Source: an uncultured Oscillospiraceae bacterium
GTDB taxonomy: Bacteria; Bacillota; Clostridia; Oscillospirales; Acutalibacteraceae
Direction: 5' to 3'
Assembly (NCBI GenBank): GCA_900540865.1
Contig: UQHH01000055.1
Location: 1 to 18,418 of the forward strand
Length of the DNA stretch: 18,418 bases
A program made the position numbers and the translations under genes. A model generated the notes under the pieces. The model ran no database searches. It worked only from the letters and a program-made list of their open reading frames with translations, and was not told the DNA's origin. Numbering within the stretch: the stretch's first letter is position 1; each line of letters starts with the position of its first letter. This document shows, in pieces, positions 1,358 through 18,418 of the stretch.

Positions 1358-3835
1358 ATGTCAACATTACAGAGAAAAGGCAGGATTGGTATCTCGCTGG
1401 TTTTGGCGCTCTTGATGGTATTCAGTGTCGTTGCAACAGTATCTGCTGCCGACACCGCCGCCAATTCGATTGTCGCTCCGACGGTAGGGCCCGACTATGC
1501 AGGAAACAGTACAATTTACGCTTACGGCGGCGGCGATTCCGCTTCCAAGGATTCTTGGATTAGCTGGAAGGGCGCGTCCGACGGCACAAAATATCTGTGC
1601 CTCCCCTCCAGCGTAGACAGGAACGTCTATTTCTATTCGACTTATTCAAGCAACGTGACCGTTGAAAACATAAAAGACGCATCCGATAAGTTTACGCTTA
1701 CGTCAAATGCGGTCAGCGGCCCGTTTGCAATCGGCACAACAAAAACATACCAGGTGAAGAGCGGAAGCACTGTCCTTTACACCTTGAAATTCAGGCTTTC
1801 CGAGGCGGAAGGCGCCCTGTTCATTACAACAACTGACAAGAACGGCAATTATGTCGACAACTGGAACTATCTCTGCCAGGATAAGGAAAATTCCTCCGCG
1901 GGCAGGTGGGTTGTCTCGGCAAACGGCGGTACCTCTAAGCTCGGCGACCTCAAGAAAATCAAGGGCAGGGGCAACTCCACATGGACAAAGAGCAAAAAGC
2001 CCTTTAACATCACGCTCGATTCCAAGGAAAAGCTGCTCGGCATGAACAAAGGCAAGAAGTTCTCCCTGCTTGCCAACTATCAGGAAGGCACGCTCATGCG
2101 CAACCGCCTCCTGTACGACATGGCTGACGAGGTTGGCCTGAACTATTCGCCTGATTCCCGTTTTGTAGAATTCTATGTCAACGGCTCCTACAAGGGCTCC
2201 TACCAGATGTCTGAAAAGGTTGAGCTCGGCAAGGACAACATGGTAAAGATTACCGACCTTGAAAAGAATACGGAAGAAAAAGCCATTGAAGTAACGGGCG
2301 ATCCCGATTACGATGTATATGGCATCTACGAGACAGAAGAGCATCAGGTACAGGCCGACTACAACGGCGGCAAAATTTATTACTACGATATTCCCGCTGA
2401 ATACAACCCCGACGATATTACGGGCGGTTACCTGTTTGAGTGCGACACCAAGGCAAACTCCGCAGGCGACTGGAACAAGTTTGAAACTCCGAAGGGACAG
2501 GTTGTTACCGTTAAGAGCCCGGCTGCCATGACAGAAGCACAGGTCAAGTACCTGTATGACTACTATGTAGCAATGGAAACAGCCGTGTATGGCACGACCG
2601 ATACCTACAAGAATTACATGGACATCGAGTCCGTGGCAAAGGCATACATGATTGCTGAAGTCGGTAAGAACATCGACGGCGGCATCACGAGCACAGACTT
2701 CTACAAAGACGCCGCTACCGGCCAGAACGGCGGTAAAATCTCCGGCGGCCCGGTTTGGGACTACGACTGCGCAATCGGCAACCTCTACGGCTCCAGAAAG
2801 AGCGTTTCCGGCGTAACCTACAACACCAACGACCCGATTGGCTGGTTCAACCGCTATATCCAGAACGCAGATAACGGCAAGGTTCCGACAATCTTTGCGG
2901 CTGCCTGCCAGCATGCAGACTTCTGGACAACAGTCAAGACGGTTTGGAACGACGAATTCGTCGACGCAATCAAGGTTGCAAACGGCGAGCAGGCCGCTAC
3001 AGGCAGCAGGATGAAGTCCATTGCCGAATACAGCGCAATGCTTCAGAAATCTGCCGACATGAACTACCTGTTCAACCCGTTCCCGTATTACAACAACAAC
3101 GGCGACTTCACATGGATTCCCTGCACGGACACGACCTACACAGGCCATGTCGCTTTCATGCAGAACTGGCTGAACACCCGCGCTGAATGGCTTAACACGA
3201 AGCTCGGTACAAGCACGACCCAGACGATTTATTACAACAACAGCTTCACAAATTGGAGCAAGGTATACGCATACGCTTGGAACGACGGCGACGGCACAAC
3301 GAACGCTGCATGGCCCGGACAGGCTATGACGGCGGTTGTCGGAACCAACGGCTACTACAAGCTCGACCTCGGATTGTTTGACCATGTTATCTTCAACAAC
3401 GGCACGAACGGACAGACAATCGACCTCGACCTCGCGGCCGACAGCTATGTGTTCAAGTCCAACGCAATCGACCATACCTATGGCGGCACCACCTATTATA
3501 AGGGCGAGTGGTCGAAGTTCGACAACACGACCAAGACTATCTACTTTGACAACGCGGCAACGAACTGGACGAACCTGAGCGCTTCTTACTGGGGCGGCGG
3601 CGTCGACCAGGCATGGCCGGGCACGGCTATGACGCTTGTCAGCGGTACCATCTATAAGGTAGAAATCCCGGGTGGCTGCACGAACATCATCTTTAACAAC
3701 GGCGGCAACAAAAAGCAGACCGCTACGCTCGTCCCGCAGGACGGCAAGCTCTATGTAGCAAGCAATACGGTCATCGGCACCGACTACTACGGCAACTCGA
3801 TTTACGGCGGCGACTGGGCAAGCTACACACCCTGA
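1358..3835 (+). CDS. Secreted CotH-family (atypical kinase fold) protein with two C-terminal CBM25/CBM26-like starch-binding repeats, 825 aa.
   Basis: Strong RBS (gtaggaggtaaatcATG). Signal peptide MSTLQRKGRIGISLVLALLMVFSVVATVSAAD. The central region carries the CotH hallmark segments (KIKGRGNSTW..KKPFNITLD; LMRNRLLYDMADEVGL; VEFYVNGSYKGSYQMSEKVE). The C-terminus carries two repeats with the W..VYAYAW...AWPG.AMT...G.YK...IFNNG signature of amylase-type starch-binding modules. Confidence 0.8.
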   Translation: MSTLQRKGRIGISLVLALLMVFSVVATVSAADTAANSIVAPTVGPDYAGNSTIYAYGGGDSASKDSWISWKGASDGTKYLCLPSSVDRNVYFYSTYSSNVTVENIKDASDKFTLTSNAVSGPFAIGTTKTYQVKSGSTVLYTLKFRLSEAEGALFITTTDKNGNYVDNWNYLCQDKENSSAGRWVVSANGGTSKLGDLKKIKGRGNSTWTKSKKPFNITLDSKEKLLGMNKGKKFSLLANYQEGTLMRNRLLYDMADEVGLNYSPDSRFVEFYVNGSYKGSYQMSEKVELGKDNMVKITDLEKNTEEKAIEVTGDPDYDVYGIYETEEHQVQADYNGGKIYYYDIPAEYNPDDITGGYLFECDTKANSAGDWNKFETPKGQVVTVKSPAAMTEAQVKYLYDYYVAMETAVYGTTDTYKNYMDIESVAKAYMIAEVGKNIDGGITSTDFYKDAATGQNGGKISGGPVWDYDCAIGNLYGSRKSVSGVTYNTNDPIGWFNRYIQNADNGKVPTIFAAACQHADFWTTVKTVWNDEFVDAIKVANGEQAATGSRMKSIAEYSAMLQKSADMNYLFNPFPYYNNNGDFTWIPCTDTTYTGHVAFMQNWLNTRAEWLNTKLGTSTTQTIYYNNSFTNWSKVYAYAWNDGDGTTNAAWPGQAMTAVVGTNGYYKLDLGLFDHVIFNNGTNGQTIDLDLAADSYVFKSNAIDHTYGGTTYYKGEWSKFDNTTKTIYFDNAATNWTNLSASYWGGGVDQAWPGTAMTLVSGTIYKVEIPGGCTNIIFNNGGNKKQTATLVPQDGKLYVASNTVIGTDYYGNSIYGGDWASYTP

Positions 3836-3982: not shown

Positions 3983-5200
3983 TTAATCGGCGCGCATTTT
4001 CTTTTTTTGTTTTCCTGCATACATCCTCCGGTCCGCCTCATAAATCAGCGTATCAGGATTCCGGTACCCCGCCGCGTCGACAATGCCTATGCTCAAAGAC
4101 AAGTCAAACGGGTATTCCTCCGATTTGCTTTTCTCCTGCAATGCTTCCTGCACGTTTTGCAGCCTTTGCTCCGCCTGCGCGGTATCTACGCCGCCGAGAA
4201 GAATAATAAACTCATCTCCCCCATAACGGCAGAGAATATCCTTATCACCGGCACATACCTCCCCAAGCTGCTGCGCCACGGCGACGATATAGCGGTCGCC
4301 TGTCTGGTGCCCGAACTTATCGTTGACGTTTTTAAGGCCGTCCAAATCGGCAAAGCAAAGGCAAAAGCAGTCGCGTTTTTCCATTCGCTGTGTGAGCAGC
4401 ATAGAAAAATACTTCCGGTTGCAGCAGCCGGTCAGCGGGTCTGTATACGCAAGGAAATGAAGCTCGCTTTCCTCCTGCATCCGTTTTAAAAGCTCCTCAT
4501 GCACCGCGTGGTTCTGCTCGCGGTACCTGTTGAGCCTGCTCATTTTGTAGGCATAGAGCGTTGCGATATAATAGCCTATCAGTACGCTGATACAGGCCTT
4601 GATGACCCAGACTTTAAAAATCAGGTAATTTCCCGGCATGTAATAGACAAGCAGGTTTAAAAAGAGGTAGCAGTACATCGCAATCATGAGCCGCGTCGAA
4701 AATTTCAGGTTCGACGGGTCGGCCGCAATGGCGCTGACACGTTCCATCCATACTGTTTTTCTAATGACCTGAAAAACAATGCCGGCAAGGACAAACGCCG
4801 CAGCTACCGGCACAAATCTATATTCGTTGTTCGGGCTAGTGCCGTCAAAGGCAGAGGTAGGTACATTTTGCGCTATTGCCGCGACCGACCGGGAAAGGAT
4901 ATTGATGCTCAGGCCAATCAAAGCGCACGTAAAGCCGTGGAACACACCCTGCCGTACCGGGCATTTGAATAAAAGGGTGGTTTCGGCGACCAGAAAAACG
5001 GCAAACACCGTCCAGTTGACAATCAGGTGGAGCTGTAAATAGCTGCAGGCAATAAACAGGATATAATTGACCGCAAAGGTTGCGCCTATGCCCTTCCAGC
5101 GCGCGACGTTCCGCCCCGTCTGTTCCCCAATATATTGAAAATACTGCCAGTTGCAGTAAAAATACGCGGGGGAAAACAATAAAATGATAAGCAGCTGCAT
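3983..5200 (-). CDS. Membrane-anchored diguanylate cyclase (GGDEF domain). The N-terminal ~230 aa has multiple TM helices; the C-terminal part is a GGDEF domain with an RYGGDEF active-site motif.
   Basis: GGDEF-domain signature (DPLTGCCNRKYF ... RYGGDEFIILL) in the C-terminal ~170 aa; hydrophobic N-terminal half. The start ATG overlaps the upstream gene stop (TAATG). Confidence 0.85.
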   Translation of the reverse strand: MQLLIILLFSPAYFYCNWQYFQYIGEQTGRNVARWKGIGATFAVNYILFIACSYLQLHLIVNWTVFAVFLVAETTLLFKCPVRQGVFHGFTCALIGLSINILSRSVAAIAQNVPTSAFDGTSPNNEYRFVPVAAAFVLAGIVFQVIRKTVWMERVSAIAADPSNLKFSTRLMIAMYCYLFLNLLVYYMPGNYLIFKVWVIKACISVLIGYYIATLYAYKMSRLNRYREQNHAVHEELLKRMQEESELHFLAYTDPLTGCCNRKYFSMLLTQRMEKRDCFCLCFADLDGLKNVNDKFGHQTGDRYIVAVAQQLGEVCAGDKDILCRYGGDEFIILLGGVDTAQAEQRLQNVQEALQEKSKSEEYPFDLSLSIGIVDAAGYRNPDTLIYEADRRMYAGKQKKKMRAD

Positions 5201-6417
5201 TATGAACGTCCCCCTGACTGCCGGCTTTGCTTATCGGCATACATTTTGCGGTCGGCTTCGCTGATGAGCTGTTCGGCCGTCTTGGAGGAATGGGCGGGAA
5301 CCTCAACGACCCCAAAGCTGAACGACAGCGGAACCGCGCCCTGTCTGATAGCAGGCGCCTTTGCCCGGATTCCTTCCATTCGCGTATGTGCATGCAATTT
5401 GCCGCAATTTGGTAGTAAAATCAAAAATTCATCTCCGCCGATACGCGCAAAAATATCGCCTCGTTCAAGGTTTTCACGAATAAGCGACGAAAAGTCGAGC
5501 AGATAGCGGTCTCCTATCGTATGTCCAAACTCATCGTTGACCTGCTTTAAATGGTCAAGGTCGATATATACAAGCGCAAGCTGCTCACCACCCGTAAGCA
5601 GCAGGTTCATCTGCTCCATCGCAAACAGGCGCGTGTACGCGCCCGTCAAGCCATCGAGATACGCGGCAATCCGCAGCCTGCGCGCACGCCGCAAATGCTC
5701 CAGCTTTTGCCGTTCCAGCCGGTCGTGCTCTTCCTCGAGCCACGCGTTTTTCGTAATGGAGTAGACATGGCTCATAAATACATAAACCATCATCAGCAGC
5801 AAAAGCACGCTTCCAATCAAAAACAGCGCGGCAAAAGAACCCGGCAAATCGAACATGCTTGGTATACTGTCAAACAGAACATAACCCATTCCAAACCAGC
5901 TGAACCGGATGAGCAGCCGGAACTCTTCTCCGCTTTGGCCCATCAGACGGGATTTGTCGTTGATTTCTCCATTGTATATAATCACCAGCCCCGCAAGCAG
6001 GTCTGCAAGCGTCGCGATAATCAGACACAAATTTCGCATACTGAAGCTGGAAAGCAGCGCGTAGGTACTGGTTTGCAGAAAAAACGCCGTCACTCCCAGC
6101 ACGAGCAAGTGGACGCTTGCGAAAGCAAGTATCCCCATATCGGCGACAAACCAGCGGCAGACCATCCTGCCGCCGAGCAGCAGAAAAAAAAGGCATTTGC
6201 CGATAAAAAGCGTCAGGTAAAACACGGGCAGGGGTATTCCCCAAAGGCCCATTGCATAAAAAAACACAGCGGTAACCGCCATAAAACCAACAGCCCTCAA
6301 GCGTGGAATCTTCTCCCCCGGCTGAAGGATGGTAAAAAATTTCATTAAAATCAAATCGCAGGGCAAAACCAGCAGAACAAGCAAAGCCGGCAGCCCATAG
6401 TGGTACAAGGCAGGCAT
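5200..6417 (-). CDS. Second membrane-anchored diguanylate cyclase (GGDEF, RIGGDEF motif), paralogous and translationally coupled to the downstream gene.
   Basis: GGDEF signature (DGLTGAYTRLF ... RIGGDEFLILL); 6-7 hydrophobic helices N-terminally. The ATG at 6417 has a good SD (ggggagaagttATG). The ORF track's longer start at 6447 is a TTG without an SD. The stop overlaps the next start by 1 nt. Confidence 0.8.
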   Translation of the reverse strand: MPALYHYGLPALLVLLVLPCDLILMKFFTILQPGEKIPRLRAVGFMAVTAVFFYAMGLWGIPLPVFYLTLFIGKCLFFLLLGGRMVCRWFVADMGILAFASVHLLVLGVTAFFLQTSTYALLSSFSMRNLCLIIATLADLLAGLVIIYNGEINDKSRLMGQSGEEFRLLIRFSWFGMGYVLFDSIPSMFDLPGSFAALFLIGSVLLLLMMVYVFMSHVYSITKNAWLEEEHDRLERQKLEHLRRARRLRIAAYLDGLTGAYTRLFAMEQMNLLLTGGEQLALVYIDLDHLKQVNDEFGHTIGDRYLLDFSSLIRENLERGDIFARIGGDEFLILLPNCGKLHAHTRMEGIRAKAPAIRQGAVPLSFSFGVVEVPAHSSKTAEQLISEADRKMYADKQSRQSGGRS

Positions 6418-6750
6418 AACTTCTCCCCACTCTCTTGCGCACGGCAAAGAACCGGCGCGGCTTACGGCCCAAAATGGCCGCAGCCATCAAATATAATCTT
6501 CTCCAAAGTATTCCGTTCAAAAAGCAATCGTTACGCCCGGCTGCCCAGGCAATCCATAATATGATACCTCCGCGGTCCTGGAAGAGCCACCCTTGCTCCT
6601 GCCATACAGCGCTGTGGTTTCACAGACAAAGACCGCTTTTTTATCATTCAAGGTTTCCCCATTTTCATAACTATAGTTTAACATATGTGTGAAAATAAAA
6701 CAACAGCCATTCCTGTTTTACATAATGCAAAATTTGCTGAATCCATAGCT

Positions 6751-9789: not shown

Positions 9790-9949
9790 AAAGTACATTC
9801 TTAAGAATTTTTTGTGAAAATCATAAGTTGATTTTTTAGAGCTGAACGTAATTTTTCAAATAAAAGGAAGATACATTGTATTGCATACAAAAATGAAAAA
9901 GAGTATAATAGGATTTATCTTAAAAAGACAAAACAGGCAGGTGACTAGG

Positions 9950-12900
9950 ATGTACATTGCTGATTTACATATCCACTCCAAATACTCCCGCGCGACGAGT
10001 AAGGAATGCGTTCCCGAGTACCTTGATTTGTGGGCAAGGCGCAAGGGAATCGACCTAATCGGCACGGGCGATTTTACCCATCCAGCGTGGCGTGAGGAAT
10101 TAAAGGAAAAGCTTGCTCCGTCTGAGGAGGGGCTTTATATCCTCCGGGACAGCGCGCGTATTTCAGACCCGACTGTTCTGGGTACAAAGCAGACGCGTTT
10201 TGTCGTATCGGGAGAAATCAGCTCTATTTATAAAAAGAACGGCAAGGTACGCAAGGTGCATAATGTCATTCTACTGCCATCACTTGAGGACGCGGACACG
10301 CTCGCGCATAAGCTTGAGGCAATCGGGAATGTCCATTCAGACGGACGGCCGATTCTCGGCCTAGACAGCCGCGATTTGCTTGAAATCACGCTGGAAAGCT
10401 GCCCCCAGGCGGTGTTTATTCCCGCGCACATCTGGACTCCGCACTTTTCGCTGTTCGGCGCGTTTTCCGGCTTCGATACGATTGAGGAATGCTTTGAGGA
10501 CCTGACTCCGTATATCCACGCGCTGGAAACGGGCCTATCCTCCGACCCGCCGATGAACTGGCGCGTTTCGGCGCTCGACCGTTACAGCCTTGTATCGAAC
10601 TCCGACGCGCATTCCCCCGCAAAGCTTGGGAGGGAAGCCAATATTATAAATGCCGAGCTTTCCTATCCCGCGCTCAAAAAAGCGCTGGAAGGCGGCGCTG
10701 GCGAGGGCTTCGGCGGCACCATCGAATTTTTTCCTGAGGAAGGGAAATACCATTTTGACGGGCACCGCGGCTGCGGGCTGTGCCTGACGCCCGCACAGTC
10801 TGAGGAATACGGCGGGAAATGCCCGGTCTGCGGCAAAAAGATTACCATAGGCGTACAGCACCGCGTGGAGGAGCTTGCGGACCGCGCGGAGGGCTTTGTA
10901 TTGCCAAACGCTGCGCCCTTTGAAAGCCTCGTCCCGCTGCCGGAGGTGCTCGCCGCCTCCACCGGCTACAGCGCCGCGGGTAAAAAGGTCGCGGCTTTAT
11001 ATGAGGAGCTTCTGTACACAATCGGCTCTGAATTTTTCATCCTCCGGCAGGCGCCGCTGGAAGAAATCGGCCTTACAGCCGGGCCGTGTATCCGCGAGGG
11101 AATCCGCCGCCTTCGTTTGGGACAGGTGCGCCGCGACCCAGGCTATGACGGCGCGTATGGGGTTATCCATATTCTGGAACGGGACGAAATCGAAAGCTTG
11201 AGCGGGCAAATCAGCCTGTTTGGCGCCGCGTCCTCCGCAGACTGGCATACAAAAGCGAGCACGAAGCTTATCCGGAAAAAGAAATCCGCGGAGGTTCCAA
11301 AGGAAGAAACGGCTGCCGCGGAACAAAAGGCGGCTTCGCAGGATTTACTTTCCGGACTCAACGCGGAACAAAAACAAGCCGTGACCTTGCCCCCCTTCGG
11401 CGCCGCCGCAATTATCGCGGGGCCCGGCACCGGCAAAACAAAGACGCTGATTTCCCGCATTGCTTATTTAATAGAGGAATGCGGCGTAAAAGCGCGCGAC
11501 ATAACCGCTGTTACCTTTACAAACAAGGCGGCGAAGGAAATGCGCGAACGCCTCACGCAGCAGCTCGGCTCCAAACGCGCGGCGGCAGGCGTAACCGTAG
11601 GAACATTCCATTCTATTTGCCTGCAAAAGCTAAAAAAAGAGAAGGAGAGCATTACGCTTTTAGACGAATATGAGGCGCTCGAGACAGCGGGCGGTATTAT
11701 AAAAGACCTGAAAATAAAAATAACCCCGCGCGAATTTTTGCGCGAGGTATCGAACAAAAAAAACGGCGTGCCTTTAAAGTACCCTGAGCTGATGGAAGAG
11801 GCGTTCGGCCTCTACTGCGCACGCGTCAGCGAACTGGGGCTGATGGATTTTGACGACCTGCTGCTGGAGGCGCTTGCGCTTTGCGGAGACGCTCATAAGA
11901 AAAATGAAGGCAGCCATTTGCTGGTCGATGAATTCCAGGACATCAACCCGGTTCAGTATCGGTTAATCAGGGAATGGAACAGGACAGGACAGAGCCTGTT
12001 CGTCATCGGCGACCCAGACCAGGCGATTTACGGCTTCCGCGGGAGCGACGCCCATTGCTTTGAACGCCTGCGTGGTGATTATCCTGAGCTCCATGTCATC
12101 CGCTTGACGGAAAATTACCGCTGCTCGCCTGAAATCCTCAGCTGTTCGCTTTCGGTCATCTCCCAAAATTCCGGAGCTTCGCGCACGCTTTCCGCCAACC
12201 GCCCGCCGCAGGGAAGGGTTTTTCTGCGCACCTCGGAAAGCTCCCTGTCGGAAGCAATTTTTGTCGCCAAGGAAATCAACCGTATGGTCGGCGGTATCGA
12301 TATGCTCGACGCGCAGGCGCTCACAGAGCCGCGCGGCGCGCAGCTTTCCCGCAGCTTTTCCGATATCGCCGTGCTTTGCCGCACGCACCGGCAGGCGCGC
12401 CTGCTCGAGATGTGCCTGCGCAAGGAAAGCATCCCCTATATTGCCGCCGGACGCGACGATTTCCTTTCCGACGAAGCGGTGCGCGGCGTATCCGGCTTCT
12501 TCCGGTTCCTGCTTGAACAAAACGACGTGCCCGCCCTGCGCACAGCGCTGAAAAACGTTTGGAGATGTCCGGCGGATTTGGTTCAAAGCTTCTGCGACGC
12601 GCTGAAAAACGCGGGAGAGGCCGGACTGCACGCCGTCCTGGAGGAATATAAAAACGCGGGGCCGCTTAAGTCTTGTATTGAACAAATCATGGAATTCCTT
12701 CCCCGTGCGCATAAAGCAAAGCCGCGCAAATTATTAGAGGAATTTGCTGAGAAAAACAGCCTTACAGAGCACGAGCCGCTTATGCAGTTTATGAATATGG
12801 CCGTGTTCCATAAGGACATGGGCTCCTTTATGCAAACGCTTCTGCTGGGCGAGGAAGCCGATATGGAACGCAGCCCGGCTAAAACCTATCCCGCCGACGC

Positions 12901-13195
12901 CGTGCGCCTGATGACGCTCCACGGCGCAAAGGGGCTTGAATTCCCTGTCGTGTTCCTCTGTGGCGTAAAAAGCGGCAGCATCCCGCTGGAAGCGCAGGGA
13001 CGTGAAACCGATATGGAAGAGGAGCGCCGCCTGTTCTTCGTCGGCATGACGCGCGCAAAGGACGAGCTGTTCCTGATGGGCTCAAAGCAGGAGCCGTCCG
13101 TCTTCCTAAACAGTATTCCGCGGGAGCAGCTGCATACGGCGCCTGTCAGGGAACACACCCAGCGCAAGGATGTACAGCTGAGCCTGTTTGATTAA
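9950..13195 (+). CDS. Fusion protein: N-terminal EndoQ-like PHP-domain endonuclease (with a CxxC...CxxC zinc finger) joined through a Lys/Ala-rich linker to a complete UvrD/PcrA-type SF1A DNA helicase. 1082 aa from the ATG at 9950.
   Basis: N-terminus MYIADLHIHSKYSRATSKE...GIDLIGTGDFTHP is the characteristic endonuclease Q start, and HRGCGLC...CPVCGKK forms a C4 finger. Helicase motifs are all present: Q (LNAEQKQAV), I (AGPGTGKT), Ia (TFTNKAA), II (VDEFQD), III (GDPDQAIYGFRGSD), IV (ENYRCSPEIL), V (LHGAKGLEF), VI (VGMTRAKDEL). The SD is aggtgactaggATG; the ORF track's earlier start at 9881 lacks an SD. Confidence 0.85.
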   Translation: MYIADLHIHSKYSRATSKECVPEYLDLWARRKGIDLIGTGDFTHPAWREELKEKLAPSEEGLYILRDSARISDPTVLGTKQTRFVVSGEISSIYKKNGKVRKVHNVILLPSLEDADTLAHKLEAIGNVHSDGRPILGLDSRDLLEITLESCPQAVFIPAHIWTPHFSLFGAFSGFDTIEECFEDLTPYIHALETGLSSDPPMNWRVSALDRYSLVSNSDAHSPAKLGREANIINAELSYPALKKALEGGAGEGFGGTIEFFPEEGKYHFDGHRGCGLCLTPAQSEEYGGKCPVCGKKITIGVQHRVEELADRAEGFVLPNAAPFESLVPLPEVLAASTGYSAAGKKVAALYEELLYTIGSEFFILRQAPLEEIGLTAGPCIREGIRRLRLGQVRRDPGYDGAYGVIHILERDEIESLSGQISLFGAASSADWHTKASTKLIRKKKSAEVPKEETAAAEQKAASQDLLSGLNAEQKQAVTLPPFGAAAIIAGPGTGKTKTLISRIAYLIEECGVKARDITAVTFTNKAAKEMRERLTQQLGSKRAAAGVTVGTFHSICLQKLKKEKESITLLDEYEALETAGGIIKDLKIKITPREFLREVSNKKNGVPLKYPELMEEAFGLYCARVSELGLMDFDDLLLEALALCGDAHKKNEGSHLLVDEFQDINPVQYRLIREWNRTGQSLFVIGDPDQAIYGFRGSDAHCFERLRGDYPELHVIRLTENYRCSPEILSCSLSVISQNSGASRTLSANRPPQGRVFLRTSESSLSEAIFVAKEINRMVGGIDMLDAQALTEPRGAQLSRSFSDIAVLCRTHRQARLLEMCLRKESIPYIAAGRDDFLSDEAVRGVSGFFRFLLEQNDVPALRTALKNVWRCPADLVQSFCDALKNAGEAGLHAVLEEYKNAGPLKSCIEQIMEFLPRAHKAKPRKLLEEFAEKNSLTEHEPLMQFMNMAVFHKDMGSFMQTLLLGEEADMERSPAKTYPADAVRLMTLHGAKGLEFPVVFLCGVKSGSIPLEAQGRETDMEEERRLFFVGMTRAKDELFLMGSKQEPSVFLNSIPREQLHTAPVREHTQRKDVQLSLFD

Positions 13196-16034: not shown

Positions 16035-16037
16035 ACG

Positions 16038-16070
16038 AAAAAGGAAGGGCAAAAGCCCTTCCTTTTTCTA
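16038..16070 (+). terminator. Rho-independent terminator aaaaaGGAAGGGC-aaaa-GCCCTTCCttttt.
   Basis: Perfect 8-bp GC-rich stem (13 bp if the A/T flanks are included) followed by a T-run, 4 nt after the amidase stop. Confidence 0.8.
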
Positions 16071-16340
16071 TTCCTTTTACTTTTTCTATTCCTTTTATAA
16101 AAAGAATTTTTATGATTTCTCTTTTATAGCTTTTTACTGATTTTTAAGAAACGTACTTTTCTTGGATTTAAAACTTATTATGTTAATTCAAAACGACGGG
16201 AACCGTGTATTGGTTTCCTCTTTCTCATTTTGAAGCATACTGCTTTTTGTTTTTTTATTTGAAACGTATCCGTTTCTTTTTAATAAACCAAACATTCTGG
16301 TTCTTGAATTTCTTCATCAAACTTTCTATGTTATCTTTTT

Positions 16341-16577
16341 CAAAAGGAAGAAACCGTTTTCGCCGGTTTCCTCCTTTTGGAATCTTCTTTCCGGCGACAG
16401 GGAAAACCTCGTCGCAGGTTTTCCCTTGACCCTTTCCAGCCGAGCAAGGGGCTTCGCCCCTTACAATCCCTGTTTTATAGTAAGCTTGACCGTTCCTCGT
16501 TTTGTGTACGGGTTGTAGAAACGGTACTACGGGACCGCCCAGCGCCGCGCCTGCGCGCGGAGTTCTTCGTGGGTGCG
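16341..16577 (-). repeat. Copy A of a ~235-bp hairpin-dense element (candidate structured ncRNA or cis-regulatory/boundary element). It is oriented on the minus strand relative to copy B.
   Basis: ~88% identical to the reverse complement of 18157..18391. It contains at least five stem-loops read from the sequence: CCGCGC-GCAG-GCGCGG; GUAG-N8-CUAC; GGGGC-GAA-GCCCC; GGGAAAACC-UGCGACGA-GGUUUUCCC; and a 16-bp stem CAAAAGGAGGAAACCG/CGGUUUCUUCCUUUUG. Confidence 0.6.
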
Positions 16578-16773
16578 TTTTTTTAATGAAGCATACTGCT
16601 TCTTGTTTTTCTTCATGAATTTTTCTATGTAGGTACAGTTCTTTCCTTGTATATGGAGTACTTCATAGGTGCGGTACCTCCTTATACGGTTTACTGGTAA
16701 CGGCATAATTTCAGTAAATAGAAGAATTTATTCTGCAATTTGCTGATGTGCCGTTTTACTGGTTTTCTGTCTG

Positions 16774-17142
16774 CTAGACAATATTTACGGGGAACGGTAG
16801 GGCATCTTCCAGTAAGGCCGCAAGCATCAGGCGCGCCCCCAGCCGGTAGCCCTGCGTAAAGCTTTCTATACTCGCTATGTCCAGCAAGTCCTGCTGGCCT
16901 TTCTCCAGATATTCGGTAAACAGCGCCTCGTGCTCTTTGCCGAGCTGCCTCAATATTTCGTCCTCCGGTTTTTTCATCCTCTCTACAGCCTTCTGGTATG
17001 CGGGCGTTGATTTCAAGATACCGGGCTTGATGTCCCCGTAATATAGCTGTTCCAGAATAGGCGTGCTTTCTTCCGCCTTCTGTTCGGGAATACCGCTTTC
17101 CTTTATAAACGGCTGGGTCTGTGCCTTTTTCTCCTTTTTCAT
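16774..17142 (-). CDS. Hypothetical protein, 122 aa. Lys/Glu-rich N-terminus, conserved YYGDIKPG segment, helical C-terminus. Third gene of a three-gene minus-strand cassette.
   Basis: Strong SD (ttGGAGGaagacatATG). The start overlaps the upstream stop (ATGA). No family recognised. Confidence 0.6.
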   Translation of the reverse strand: MKKEKKAQTQPFIKESGIPEQKAEESTPILEQLYYGDIKPGILKSTPAYQKAVERMKKPEDEILRQLGKEHEALFTEYLEKGQQDLLDIASIESFTQGYRLGARLMLAALLEDALPFPVNIV

Positions 17143-17456
17143 ATGTCTTCCTCCAACTGCTCTATGTCATTCTGCCTGCCGCAGCAGGATTTCAGCATAT
17201 TTGTGACAAAGCCGTATCCATTGCCTATGTCATCGTACGCACAGCTTTTATTTAGACACCAATGCACGCACGCCAGGACAAAACGATTTATTTGAAAGTT
17301 ACGCTGCTTTCTGTCCATATCCAGTTCGTCGTCGAGCAGCAGGTAGTTTTCAAAGCATCCTACCGCAAAGCCGATTTGCTCCAAAATCTTGTTATCCAGC
17401 AAAAACGGGTAGTTACTTTCATCATAGGGCGGCGGTAATTTCAATTCTAAATTCAT
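17139..17456 (-). CDS. Hypothetical small protein, 105 aa, paralogous to the gene immediately upstream (shared LE.IGFA N-terminal motif, conserved Cys positions, LKSCCGRQN C-terminal motif).
   Basis: SD GGGAGG 8 nt before the ATG. The start abuts the upstream stop (no gap). The paralogy is seen by aligning the two translations by eye. Confidence 0.6.
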   Translation of the reverse strand: MNLELKLPPPYDESNYPFLLDNKILEQIGFAVGCFENYLLLDDELDMDRKQRNFQINRFVLACVHWCLNKSCAYDDIGNGYGFVTNMLKSCCGRQNDIEQLEEDI

Positions 17457-17753
17457 TTAATTTTCCTCCCTTATCTTTTTATTCTGTTTCCCGCAGCTTA
17501 ATTTCAGGCACAAAGCAATCGTTTCACAAGCGTCTTCTGCTTCCGTTTCCCTGTCACAGGCGCAGAGGCTTGCCGCCAAATATGCAAGGCAAAAATAATC
17601 TTCATACTCAGACTTTCCAAACGGTACCACGTCAAACACACGGAAAATATTAAACGCCCTGCTTGCAAACCCGATTTTCTCGAGCACGCCTGTATCAAGC
17701 TCCGTTTCCTCCAACAGCTCTAAAAGCACTTTCTTTTCCACCATGTCATTCAT
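17457..17753 (-). CDS. Hypothetical small protein, 98 aa (from the second ATG), Cys-containing (C-x8-C-x-C-x8-C ... LKLSCGKQN). First gene of the cassette operon.
   Basis: GGAGG lies 6 nt before the second ATG (17753); the first ATG (17759) directly abuts the SD. Paralogous to the 17139..17456 product. A perfect TATAAT -10 lies on the minus strand at 17820-17825. Confidence 0.6.
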   Translation of the reverse strand: MNDMVEKKVLLELLEETELDTGVLEKIGFASRAFNIFRVFDVVPFGKSEYEDYFCLAYLAASLCACDRETEAEDACETIALCLKLSCGKQNKKIREEN

Positions 17754-17831
17754 AAACATCCTCCTAGAAAATTAAGCTATGGCAACTTAAAACAAATGCT
17801 AAATAAATGTCTAACAAATATTATAAGCGTT

Positions 17832-17897
17832 TGTTTTGTGTTCTTTAATTTTGAATATACCACACTTGTGTTCTGTTTGCAACACTTTTGTGGTGTT
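17832..17897. promoter_or_regulatory. Divergent promoter/operator region between the cassette operon (-) and the XRE gene (+): reiterated TTGTGTT / ACACTT(TT)GTGGTGTT motifs and a GTGTT-N8-AACAC dyad; candidate binding sites for the adjacent XRE regulator.
   Basis: Direct repeats ACACTTGTGTT (17862-17872) and ACACTTTTGTGGTGTT (17882-17897); TTGTGTT also at 17836-17842; dyad GTGTTctgtttgcAACAC at 17868-17885. All read from the sequence. Confidence 0.3.
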
Positions 17898-17927
17898 TTA
17901 TGTTATAAAATTTCTGGAGGTGACAAA

Positions 17928-18149
17928 ATGTACTATTATACAGAAAGGCTTACAAATTTAAGAGAAAAAAATGGTTTGACAAAAAAACAGGTTGCAGATG
18001 CAATAGGAGTAAAACCGGAGCAATACAGGCGCTATGAAATTGGACAAAATGAAATAAAGGCAAGTCACATTGTGAAATTTGCTGAATTCTATCATGTTTC
18101 TGCTGACTATATTTTGGGATTAACAAAGGATAAAAGAAAATTTTGGTGA
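17928..18149 (+). CDS. XRE-family (Cro/cI-type) helix-turn-helix transcriptional regulator, 73 aa.
   Basis: HTH_3 signature (LRELREKNGLTKKQVADAIGVKPEQYRRYEIGQNEIKASHIVKFAEFYHVSADYILG). SD GGAGGTGA 7 nt before the ATG at 17928; the ORF track's start at 17796 is an upstream in-frame extension without an SD. Confidence 0.8.
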   Translation: MYYYTERLTNLREKNGLTKKQVADAIGVKPEQYRRYEIGQNEIKASHIVKFAEFYHVSADYILGLTKDKRKFW

Positions 18150-18156
18150 AAATACT

Positions 18157-18391
18157 TCACTCACAAAGTATTCCGCGCGAAGGCGCGGCGCTGAGCGGTC
18201 CCGTAGTATCTTTTCTACAACCCGTACATAAAACGAGGAACGGACAAGCTGTCTATAAAACGGGGATGGTAAGGGGCGCAGCCCCTTGCTCGGCTGGAAA
18301 GGGTCAAGGGAAAACCTGCGACGAGGTTTTCCCTGTCGGCGGAAAGGTGATTGCAAAAGAGGAAAACCGCCGAAACGGTTTCCCTCTTTTG
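18157..18391 (+). repeat. Copy B of the ~235-bp hairpin-dense element, inverted relative to copy A. It lies immediately 3' of the XRE gene and 5' of an MKK... ORF start at 18411 that is cut by the window end.
   Basis: See copy A. Identical stems, with differences concentrated in loops. The terminal 16-bp stem shows two compensatory base-pair swaps relative to copy A (G-C/A-U changed to A-U/G-C). Confidence 0.6.
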
Positions 18392-18418
18392 AATAAACAT
18401 ATAAAGTTTTATGAAGAA

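Follow-up and report, generated by a model that had tools for sequence, protein, structure and literature searches.

A repeat-bracketed cassette of small genes in uncultured gut Oscillospirales as a candidate accessory module of mobile-element type

What could a gene for a minimal DNA-binding protein and three tightly packed genes for small proteins be doing between two inverted copies of a long structured repeat? This question is raised by the right-hand end of an 18,418-nucleotide stretch of DNA from an uncultured Oscillospiraceae bacterium (contig UQHH01000055.1; the whole stretch is called the window). In this region an XRE-type helix-turn-helix (HTH) gene stands divergent from an operon of three genes, named A, B and the DUF6809 gene, and a ~260-nt structured repeat, named el, forms an inverted pair around this cassette. 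An earlier note on this DNA had taken the repeats for mere boundaries, but they are the most informative feature of the locus. As an answer we propose, with about even confidence, that the locus belongs to a family of multi-copy, repressor-controlled, insulated accessory cassettes of mobile-element type that are exchanged through their flanking repeats.

The HTH gene occupies positions 17928-18149 on the plus strand and codes for 73 amino acids. Gene A opens the divergent operon on the minus strand (17457-17753, 98 aa, or from 17759, 100 aa) and is followed by B (17139-17456, 105 aa) and by the DUF6809 gene (16774-17142, 122 aa). This gene map agrees to the base with the one drawn before, and the strong Shine-Dalgarno sites and the overlapping or abutting start and stop codons that came with it can all be read in the DNA. 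All four genes have GGAGG-type ribosome-binding sites, which for B, DUF6809 and the HTH gene lie 7-8 nt 5' of the start. In front of A, an AGGAGG (17765-17760) runs directly into a first ATG, and a second ATG follows 6 nt later at 17753. Because AGGAGG sits 6 nt before ATG 17753, this codon is likely the better start and the 98-aa protein likely the product; 98 aa were also called by gene callers on the identical contigs L067 and L070. The stop codon TAA of A (17459-17457) abuts the ATG of B (17456), and the stop of B overlaps the start of the DUF6809 gene in the sequence ATGA (17142-17139). In comparisons with copies on other contigs, the ratio of nonsynonymous to synonymous substitution rates (dN/dS) is 0.08-0.41 over all four genes, a sign of purifying selection (A: 0.08-0.32; B: 0.34-0.41; DUF6809: 0.17). 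Since the genes are conserved on other contigs with such ratios, they are real genes rather than chance open reading frames (ORFs). A 117-aa ORF from 17796 was dismissed as spurious, being a 5' extension of the 73-aa HTH gene.

The bracketing repeats are related by a 253-nt inverted repeat in which positions 16332-16584 and 18149-18401 are 85% complementary. The left el (16319-16586, minus strand, nhmmer 264.9 bits) points with its 5' end towards the cassette, and the right el (18147-18411, plus strand, nhmmer 292.5 bits) lies in sense orientation downstream of the HTH gene. The stop codon of the XRE gene abuts the 5' end of the right el, and at 19 other loci an HTH gene likewise lies directly upstream of a co-oriented el. 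On the other side, a shortened relative of the repeat separates the left el from the DUF6809 gene. This "mini-el" (16587-16678, minus strand) is internally deleted: about 25 nt of the el 5' end (GGTACCGCACCTATGAAGTACTCC) are joined to the 3' tail of el and to a hairpin module of the GAAGCA type. As RNA, the right el folds with -101 kcal/mol (z -4.75), and each el copy folds far better than shuffled sequences. In the left copy, the last hairpin (~16341-16379) is preceded by an A-run and followed by a U-run, with a terminator-like match at 16350-16370 on the plus strand; terminal hairpin and U-run of the right copy span ~18354-18395, with a terminator-like site at 18364-18381. In a scan, this long terminal hairpin with its A- and U-runs resembled a terminator in either direction, and we read it as a putative bidirectional terminator. 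It shows compensatory changes, and its G-U pairs occur on the el-sense strand.

To map the distribution of this repeat we collected el loci by a pattern derived from the el 5' module and mapped them by nhmmer and tblastn. This search returned 49 human-gut metagenome loci, 16 of them from one sample, and the same pattern found no el in IMG/VR. The copies occur solo, in tandem or as inverted pairs, and some are truncated. Among these 49 loci, every non-empty inverted pair encloses a regulator with or without DUF6809/A/B cargo, and no other type of gene. The full set of XRE gene divergent from A, B and DUF6809 is found in the window, L067 and L070; L004-L006 contain a decayed version with an N-terminally truncated HTH and a DUF6809 remnant. 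Other layouts combine XRE with A and B2 (a third branch of the A/B family, described below), XRE with DUF6809 only, two ribbon-helix-helix (RHH) genes with DUF6809 and a B-like gene, or consist of one or two XRE genes alone. Bracketing by el applies to most cassettes and was also seen at L001-L006, L015, L018-L020, L024, L029, L032, L034, L035, L039, L041, L049-L052, L059 and L061, and "empty" el pairs at L001 (1712-2303) and L038. Of 37 cassette genes neighbouring an el 5' end, 35 share the orientation of that el, with el 5' ends abutting cassette stop codons. A/B, DUF6809 and XRE/RHH genes thus recur together in differing orders and at differing levels of divergence. This observation disposes of the possibility, considered earlier, that homologs of these proteins never occur with each other or with an XRE gene, as they co-occur in many combinations.

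The cassettes belong to a lineage of uncultured human-gut Oscillospirales, with record labels such as Ruminococcaceae UMGS231, Acutalibacteraceae and Christensenellales, that is present on hundreds of public contigs, mostly from human-gut metagenome assemblies. L067 represents the window locus in extended form, with the order dnaG-rpoD-131aa-[el HTH A B DUF6809 el]-amidase. Elsewhere the insertion contexts differ: besides rpoD/amidase we found cassettes at rimM-trmD, at the spoIIAA-AB-sigF operon and at rimP-nusA-infB, and between L002 and L004 the cassette is inverted relative to rimM. Moreover, the content of one site can differ between relatives. In L034 and L041 the amidase-side flank is 92% identical to that of the window over 2845 bp and the other flank differs; the cargo at this site consists of an XRE gene (40% aa identity) and a DUF6809 gene (57% aa, 67% nt), and A/B genes are absent. 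Wherever the identical amidase was found, the contig either contains the cassette or breaks at the repeat, and the related genome has a different cassette, not an empty site. Several copies can occur in one genome, as shown by three loci in UMGS231 and by three widely separated A-family paralogs under the prefix ACLVMF (03315, 06830, 09280). Contigs often break at the cassette. As a side observation, L002 (1-1475) matches window positions 17139-18411 with 100% identity over el, HTH gene and A and with 91% over B, after which a short-type el and rimM follow. This contig comes from the same sample as the amidase-locus contig L080, and the mosaic has arisen either because paralogous cassettes recombined or because the assembly is chimeric at the repeat.

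The same neighbourhoods bear on the idea that the locus is a host developmental or stress module, that is, a switch in the manner of SinR/SinI or of Streptomyces WhiJ/BldB in which an XRE repressor is counteracted by small proteins to tune sporulation or envelope genes. The XRE proteins are indeed minimal HTH proteins of the size of SinR, several paralogous sets of XRE and small-protein genes occur per genome, and some neighbours are related to sporulation (spoIIAA-AB-sigF at L001, YabP/YqfD at L004, a cortex-type amidase and a deacetylase in the window). On the other hand, the positions are not conserved, the cargo at one site is replaced in close relatives and the family does not extend beyond a very narrow lineage. 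Repeat bracketing and the association of DUF6809 with mobile elements also point to accessory rather than core regulation, and we consider a host switch of this kind improbable.

By combining a promoter scan, a repeat search and reading of the sequence we could delineate a divergent control region (17760-17927, not assigned to a strand). Reading leftward from 17882 to 17854, the scan revealed a promoter-like site (TTGCAA-17-TATATT, TG-extended) which suits the operon. A candidate rightward extended -10 element (TGtTATAAA, 17901-17909), identified by eye, could serve the HTH gene. One repeat pair, ACACTTGTGTTCTGTTT at 17862-17878 and ACACTTTTGTGGTGTTT at 17882-17898, with starts 20 nt apart, overlaps the leftward promoter; a second pair (17832-17851 and 17894-17913) has starts 62 nt apart. 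The two pairs bear out the earlier suggestion of reiterated operator-like repeats in this region.

The 73-aa protein is a minimal, basic HTH protein (pI 9.5) of XRE type, with residues 10-62 matching HTH_3 (PF01381; E 9e-14, 51.7 bits against a cutoff of 23). Its best likeness in NCBIfam is an RstR-type phage repressor (56.8 bits, below the cutoff of 80). Weak resemblance at the level of the HTH to the antitoxins MqsA, HigA and spr1629 also stays below the respective cutoffs, and PADLOC-DB v2 yielded generic matches only (RmrA and capH, with E 6e-7 at best). Certain cassettes have, in place of the XRE protein, RHH-like proteins of 58-80 aa (L001 7326-7568; L059 5083-5259 and 5662-5859), for which Pfam gives weak hints only (RepB-RCR_reg, MobC_2, TraY, DUF6364).

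The products of A and B had been described as paralogs of no nameable family. Their relationship is weak but supported: BLASTP aligns them with 26% identity over 77 aa (E 5e-4), and a profile-profile comparison by hhalign gives a probability of 93% (E 3.6e-7). Both are acidic (A: pI 4.5; B: pI 4.3). The LE.IGFA motif proved to be a genuine family signature in alignments of A, of B and of the superfamily; B also contains the motifs PPY..YPF, LEQIGFA, FVLAC and GNGYGFVT. A third branch, B2, comprises proteins of 130-146 aa from related cassettes. In the alignment of 18 superfamily sequences five columns are invariant (L, G, A, F and F), within helices L-[ED]-x-I-G-[FY]-A...F and F-[VC]-L. The family is very rare: in 5.8 billion proteins A is represented by 14 clusters and B by 5, and a joint A/B profile found 18 representatives in 1.84 billion; only one GTDB species representative carries it (the uncultured Ruminococcaceae UMGS231, with the three loci mentioned above). 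Neither A nor B matches any model in Pfam, NCBIfam, PHROGs or PADLOC, and Pfam was also blank on the 18 superfamily members, so the lack of a family name still holds for these two proteins. Profile searches against the PDB gave chance matches to retroviral matrix proteins only (E 0.008-0.35), and hhalign detected no relation between A/B and DUF6809.

The four conserved cysteines that had been noted in A and B do not hold up at the level of the superfamily. The 18-sequence alignment contains neither an invariant Cys column nor a CxxC pair, the commonest Cys (in FVLAC) is a Tyr in A of the window, and B2 and the distant members lack most of the cysteines. Since the Cys positions are not conserved, the idea of a metal-binding or disulfide-dependent complex is unsupported. 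We can also eliminate the possibility that A and B, given their Cys-rich C-termini, are precursors of ribosomally synthesised and post-translationally modified peptides, because a maturase is absent and the cysteines are not conserved. AlphaFold2, using a 17-sequence alignment, modelled A with helices only and with low confidence.

For the 122-aa protein, the claim that no family can be named has to be withdrawn. Over model positions 4-84 of 85 it matches DUF6809 (Pfam PF20648; E 3.6e-17, 63.4 bits against a cutoff of 27), and YYGDIKPG is the N-terminal signature of this family. The protein has a Lys-rich N-terminus, LYYGDIKPG and GYRLGARLML motifs and no Cys. Taken together, the three proteins are not all assigned to well-characterised housekeeping families; had they been, this would have spoken against the earlier interpretation. 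The exact 122-aa protein (P0034) is encoded on 8 contigs, and four diverged DUF6809 variants from cassette cargo match the full model with 65-81 bits, above the gathering score, with the common motifs LYYG.I.P and GF/YRLGARL. AlphaFold2 with 5 sequences again gave helices only at low confidence. Relatives are also encoded on IMG/VR contigs. In L073 and L074 they come immediately behind genes for a tyrosine integrase and an excisionase-like protein with a double HTH, and in L076 they lie among accessory genes of the type found in integrative and conjugative elements (ICEs), namely amidoligase, AIG2-like and Cys-rich VLP genes. Because its relatives adjoin tyrosine integrase, excisionase-like HTH and ICE accessory genes, DUF6809 appears to be of mobile-element ancestry.

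This ancestry raises the question as to whether the locus is simply a relic, or a domesticated switch, from the immunity region of an ICE, an integrative and mobilisable element (IME) or a prophage that has lost its integrase and now decays in largely functionless islets. The position of DUF6809 relatives just described, the divergent XRE-repressor layout, which resembles immunity regions, and the existence of degenerate copies, HTH-only cassettes and empty el pairs are consistent with such an origin. However, intact copies evolve under the purifying selection described above and occur as several paralogs per genome, the window has no integrase, att-like site or other element genes, and the borders are formed by the cassette's own conserved repeats rather than by element ends. 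We therefore regard the relic as unlikely. The presence of multiple copies at variable sites, the co-occurrence with XRE/RHH genes and the integrase-associated DUF6809 relatives agree with that part of the earlier interpretation which saw a mobile-element-type accessory module, as opposed to a housekeeping one.

The earlier note had also considered a toxin-antitoxin (TA), abortive-infection or other defence module. In this scenario one of DUF6809, A and B would be a growth-arresting toxin, neutralised by a small acidic protein or by the tail of the XRE protein, and the XRE or RHH protein would serve as transcriptional regulator of a three-component system similar to omega-epsilon-zeta. Small translationally coupled genes, multi-copy and strain-variable cassettes, degenerate copies with truncated HTH and DUF6809 and the interchange of XRE and RHH between homologous cassettes, as in TA families, all suit this scenario, as do the acidity of A and B, which they share with many antitoxins, and the sub-cutoff likeness of the XRE protein to MqsA, HigA and spr1629. 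Conversely, no toxin domain was detected in A, B or DUF6809 by Pfam, NCBIfam, PADLOC or PHROGs. The three proteins match no defence-system model of PADLOC-DB v2, and what PADLOC, NCBIfam and PHROGs did return was limited to generic HTH matches, with no domain of a toxin, abortive-infection or defence protein among them. The regulator, the only DNA-binding protein, is encoded on the strand opposite to the small genes and is not co-transcribed with them, and there are cassettes with XRE only or with XRE and DUF6809 only. Finally, none of the proteins occurs in phage or plasmid collections, and the neighbours are housekeeping genes (rpoD, rimM, nusA, sigF) rather than a defence island. The defence assignment is thus not borne out, and we find a TA or abortive-infection module rather unlikely, though somewhat less so than the relic.

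Several observations weigh against an accessory cassette exchanged through its repeats. Cassettes of the A/B2 type (L007-L014, L016) have no detectable el, which shows that bracketing is not obligatory, and solo, tandem and antisense el copies adjoin ordinary genes. Because of such copies, el could be an independent intergenic repeat that accumulates round cassettes. With an identity of only 85-88% between them, the el copies of the window do not stem from a recent duplication. Neither a recombinase nor an empty site was found, the latter also sought through the exact amidase protein, and no target-site duplication could be read; mobility is therefore deduced from distribution only. The AlphaFold models are weak (pLDDT 54 for A and 49 for DUF6809), and A and B have no relative in PDB or Pfam.

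The bracketing may be coincidental, with el being an independent repeat akin to MITEs (miniature transposable elements with inverted repeats), repetitive extragenic palindromes (REPs) or BOX elements that piles up in AT-rich spacers. Truncated copies beside ordinary genes fit this explanation as well as the solo and tandem ones and the L007-type cassette, and el is modular, with swappable middles and trailing hairpins, like known mosaic repeats. Coincidence would hardly explain that the non-empty inverted pairs in the 49 loci enclose nothing except regulator and DUF6809/A/B cargo, that el 5' ends abut cassette stops in the same orientation with two exceptions in 37, or that one and the same bracketed unit turns up again at other positions in the chromosome. 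On this balance we assign coincidental bracketing a low probability.

How might the exchanged accessory cassette work? The 73-aa XRE protein would bind the repeats over the leftward -35/-10 site, repress the A-B-DUF6809 operon and regulate its own gene. Both divergent transcripts run into a sense copy of el, whose hairpin would terminate transcription in both directions, and the module would thereby be insulated from the adjacent rpoD and amidase operons. For the three small proteins the most likely mode of action, we infer, is a complex without enzymatic activity: A, B and DUF6809 would be translationally coupled, acidic helical proteins that act jointly by protein-protein binding, in the manner of a partner switch, an anti-repressor or a toxin and its antidote, and neither catalysis nor metal chemistry would be involved. 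Besides the putative terminators, the flanking repeats probably supply either homology or recognition sites through which cassettes spread and are replaced. The distribution pattern suggests that cassettes spread and swap between intergenic sites by way of these conserved repeats, possibly through homologous recombination at el or by a recombinase acting in trans.

A bolder version of this proposal is that the locus represents a previously undescribed gene-cassette platform, in which inverted el ends mobilise or exchange XRE/RHH-DUF6809-A/B modules beside highly expressed housekeeping operons and the el RNA acts as a 3' untranslated region or as a small RNA partner of the cassette proteins. 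We hold this version to be rather doubtful. If true, it would give the first functional context to DUF6809, to the A/B family and to the orphan RNA motif Clostridiales-2, to which the core of el bears some likeness. This motif (RF02937) scores below its gathering threshold of 58.6 bits in both copies, with 34.4 bits at 16387-16478 and 27.7 bits at 18255-18346, and no match at this threshold was found in the window or in the el copies of 18 further loci.

The el family is itself a mosaic. Three size classes with swappable middle modules could be distinguished, and the short (~230 nt) and long (~305 nt) types differ in the middle. Across genomes (window; L018-L066) the central ~90 nt are almost invariant, in contrast to the modules at the 5' and 3' sides. 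Beyond the outer ends come hairpin modules that vary from copy to copy. In the window these form an array on the minus strand, 3' of the left el (16190-16318), with GAAGCA-nnn-TGCTTC and GAAACG-nnn-CGTTTC hairpins, direct repeats D1 and D2 and terminator-like hairpins at 16198-16218 and 16261-16276. The palindromic modules CAAGAAGCAGTATGCTTCA and AGAAACGGnACGTTTCA, each with a 6-bp stem and a 3-nt loop, occur in the window at 16190-16330 and 16587-16632. Modules of this kind, in variable numbers, lie 3' of most el copies and have the appearance of a layer of REPs within the mosaic. Directly after the terminator hairpin of the amidase gene (16037-16068) there is a tandem duplication of 18 nt (TTCCTTTTTCTATTCCTT twice, 16059-16094).

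Other interpretations of el could be discarded. It is not protein-coding in spite of its 69- and 78-aa Arg-rich ORFs, as 1-nt indels and swaps of whole modules separate the copies; a 59-aa ORF at 16527-16706 is also spurious. As a regulatory device, a phase-variable promoter switch that works by inversion of the pair was rejected, since the two promoters lie inside and a putative terminator stands at either end; the inversion seen between L002 and L004 is an evolutionary one. A template or variable repeat of a diversity-generating retroelement can be excluded, since el is a dispersed repeat of 49 loci that does not overlap the 3' end of a target gene. Two further observations concern the surroundings of el copies. 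In L024, a bona fide T-box leader (904-1141, 101.8 bits) has el fragments at a distance of about 170 nt, indicating that el copies also settle beside ordinary regulatory leaders. L063 encodes a 392-aa ORF resembling transposases of insertion sequences, with an N-terminal HTH (106-1284); a solo el has its 5' end 250 nt away. The ORF is probably unrelated to el, as its other side has none.

The window is otherwise ordinary chromosome. Its ten largest ORFs gave only non-mobile Pfam matches or none (CotH, two GGDEF, SPFH, DUF1836, UvrD-like helicase, Fur), with no integrase or element genes; genes for rubrerythrin, deacetylase and amidase are annotated in the syntenic L067. The window's A, B, DUF6809 and el have no match in phage or plasmid collections. 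Among the larger products are a CotH-kinase-like protein of 825 aa that contains two starch-binding modules of the CBM26 type (1358-3835), two tandem GGDEF diguanylate cyclases (3983-6447) and a 1104-aa UvrD-like helicase (9881-13195), the helicase domain of which starts at about residue 493, after a long uncharacterised N-terminal region.

What these results add is, first, a new and very rare superfamily of small proteins (A/B/B2) that is linked genetically to DUF6809 and to XRE/RHH regulators. Three "unknowns" thereby gain a shared, testable context, and the Clostridiales-2-like RNA motif gains a candidate one. Second, the difference in cargo at one site between close relatives makes the locus a compact system in which to study how repeats mediate cassette exchange in Firmicutes. 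If the products turn out to be toxin-antidote or anti-repressor pairs, they would constitute new families; if not, the cassette still serves as a marker of strain-level variation. A repeat-bracketed cassette architecture of this kind appears to be undescribed in Clostridia.

Several known systems share single features with the cassette. XRE switches of phages and integrative elements such as cI/Cro, ImmR, RstR and SinR/SinI likewise consist of a minimal HTH_3 protein divergent from a small operon, with repeats over the promoter; unlike them, the window contains no ImmA-type protease, phage or ICE genes or integrase, and the partner proteins are unrelated to SinI and Cro. TA modules (HigBA, MqsRA, omega-epsilon-zeta) are comparable in their small coupled genes, multiple copies, strain variation, swaps of DNA-binding domains and decayed copies, whereas here a recognisable toxin is missing, the regulator is divergent and no NCBIfam or PADLOC match exceeds its threshold. 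For DUF6809, our literature search found no paper that mentions the family, and for Clostridiales-2 it gave two microbiome papers with titles unrelated to the motif. DUF6809 members on IMG/VR contigs follow integrase and excisionase-like genes, while the member studied here has a Lys-rich N-terminal tail and is coupled to A/B. The core of el aligns end to end with the 82-nt Clostridiales-2 model, including two hairpins and the linkers AUAAAA...AGGG...UCA...GUCG...GGAAA, but it is merely the middle module of a larger element, and other modules take its place in short and long el.

Among repeats, a 253-nt inverted repeat (85%) and dispersed copies at 49 loci fit a MITE, or a non-autonomous transposon with terminal inverted repeats. 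BOX of pneumococci is another mosaic intergenic repeat. The closest parallels come from Neisseria, with its Correia repeat-enclosed elements, arrays of neisserial intergenic mosaic elements (NIMEs) and minimal mobile elements (PMC3898611). Like el, these are dispersed, structured and modular repeats without a transposase that lie between housekeeping genes, and different whole-gene cassettes can occupy one site in relatives; as el could, such repeats could supply portable homology together with transcription signals (PMC3898611). The Correia element, with its 26-bp inverted repeats and a length of 100-155 bp (PMC3898611), is much shorter than the ~260 nt of el. What sets el apart from repeats of the Neisseria and BOX types is its occurrence in a lineage of Clostridia and the restriction of its cargo to modules of a regulator plus small proteins.

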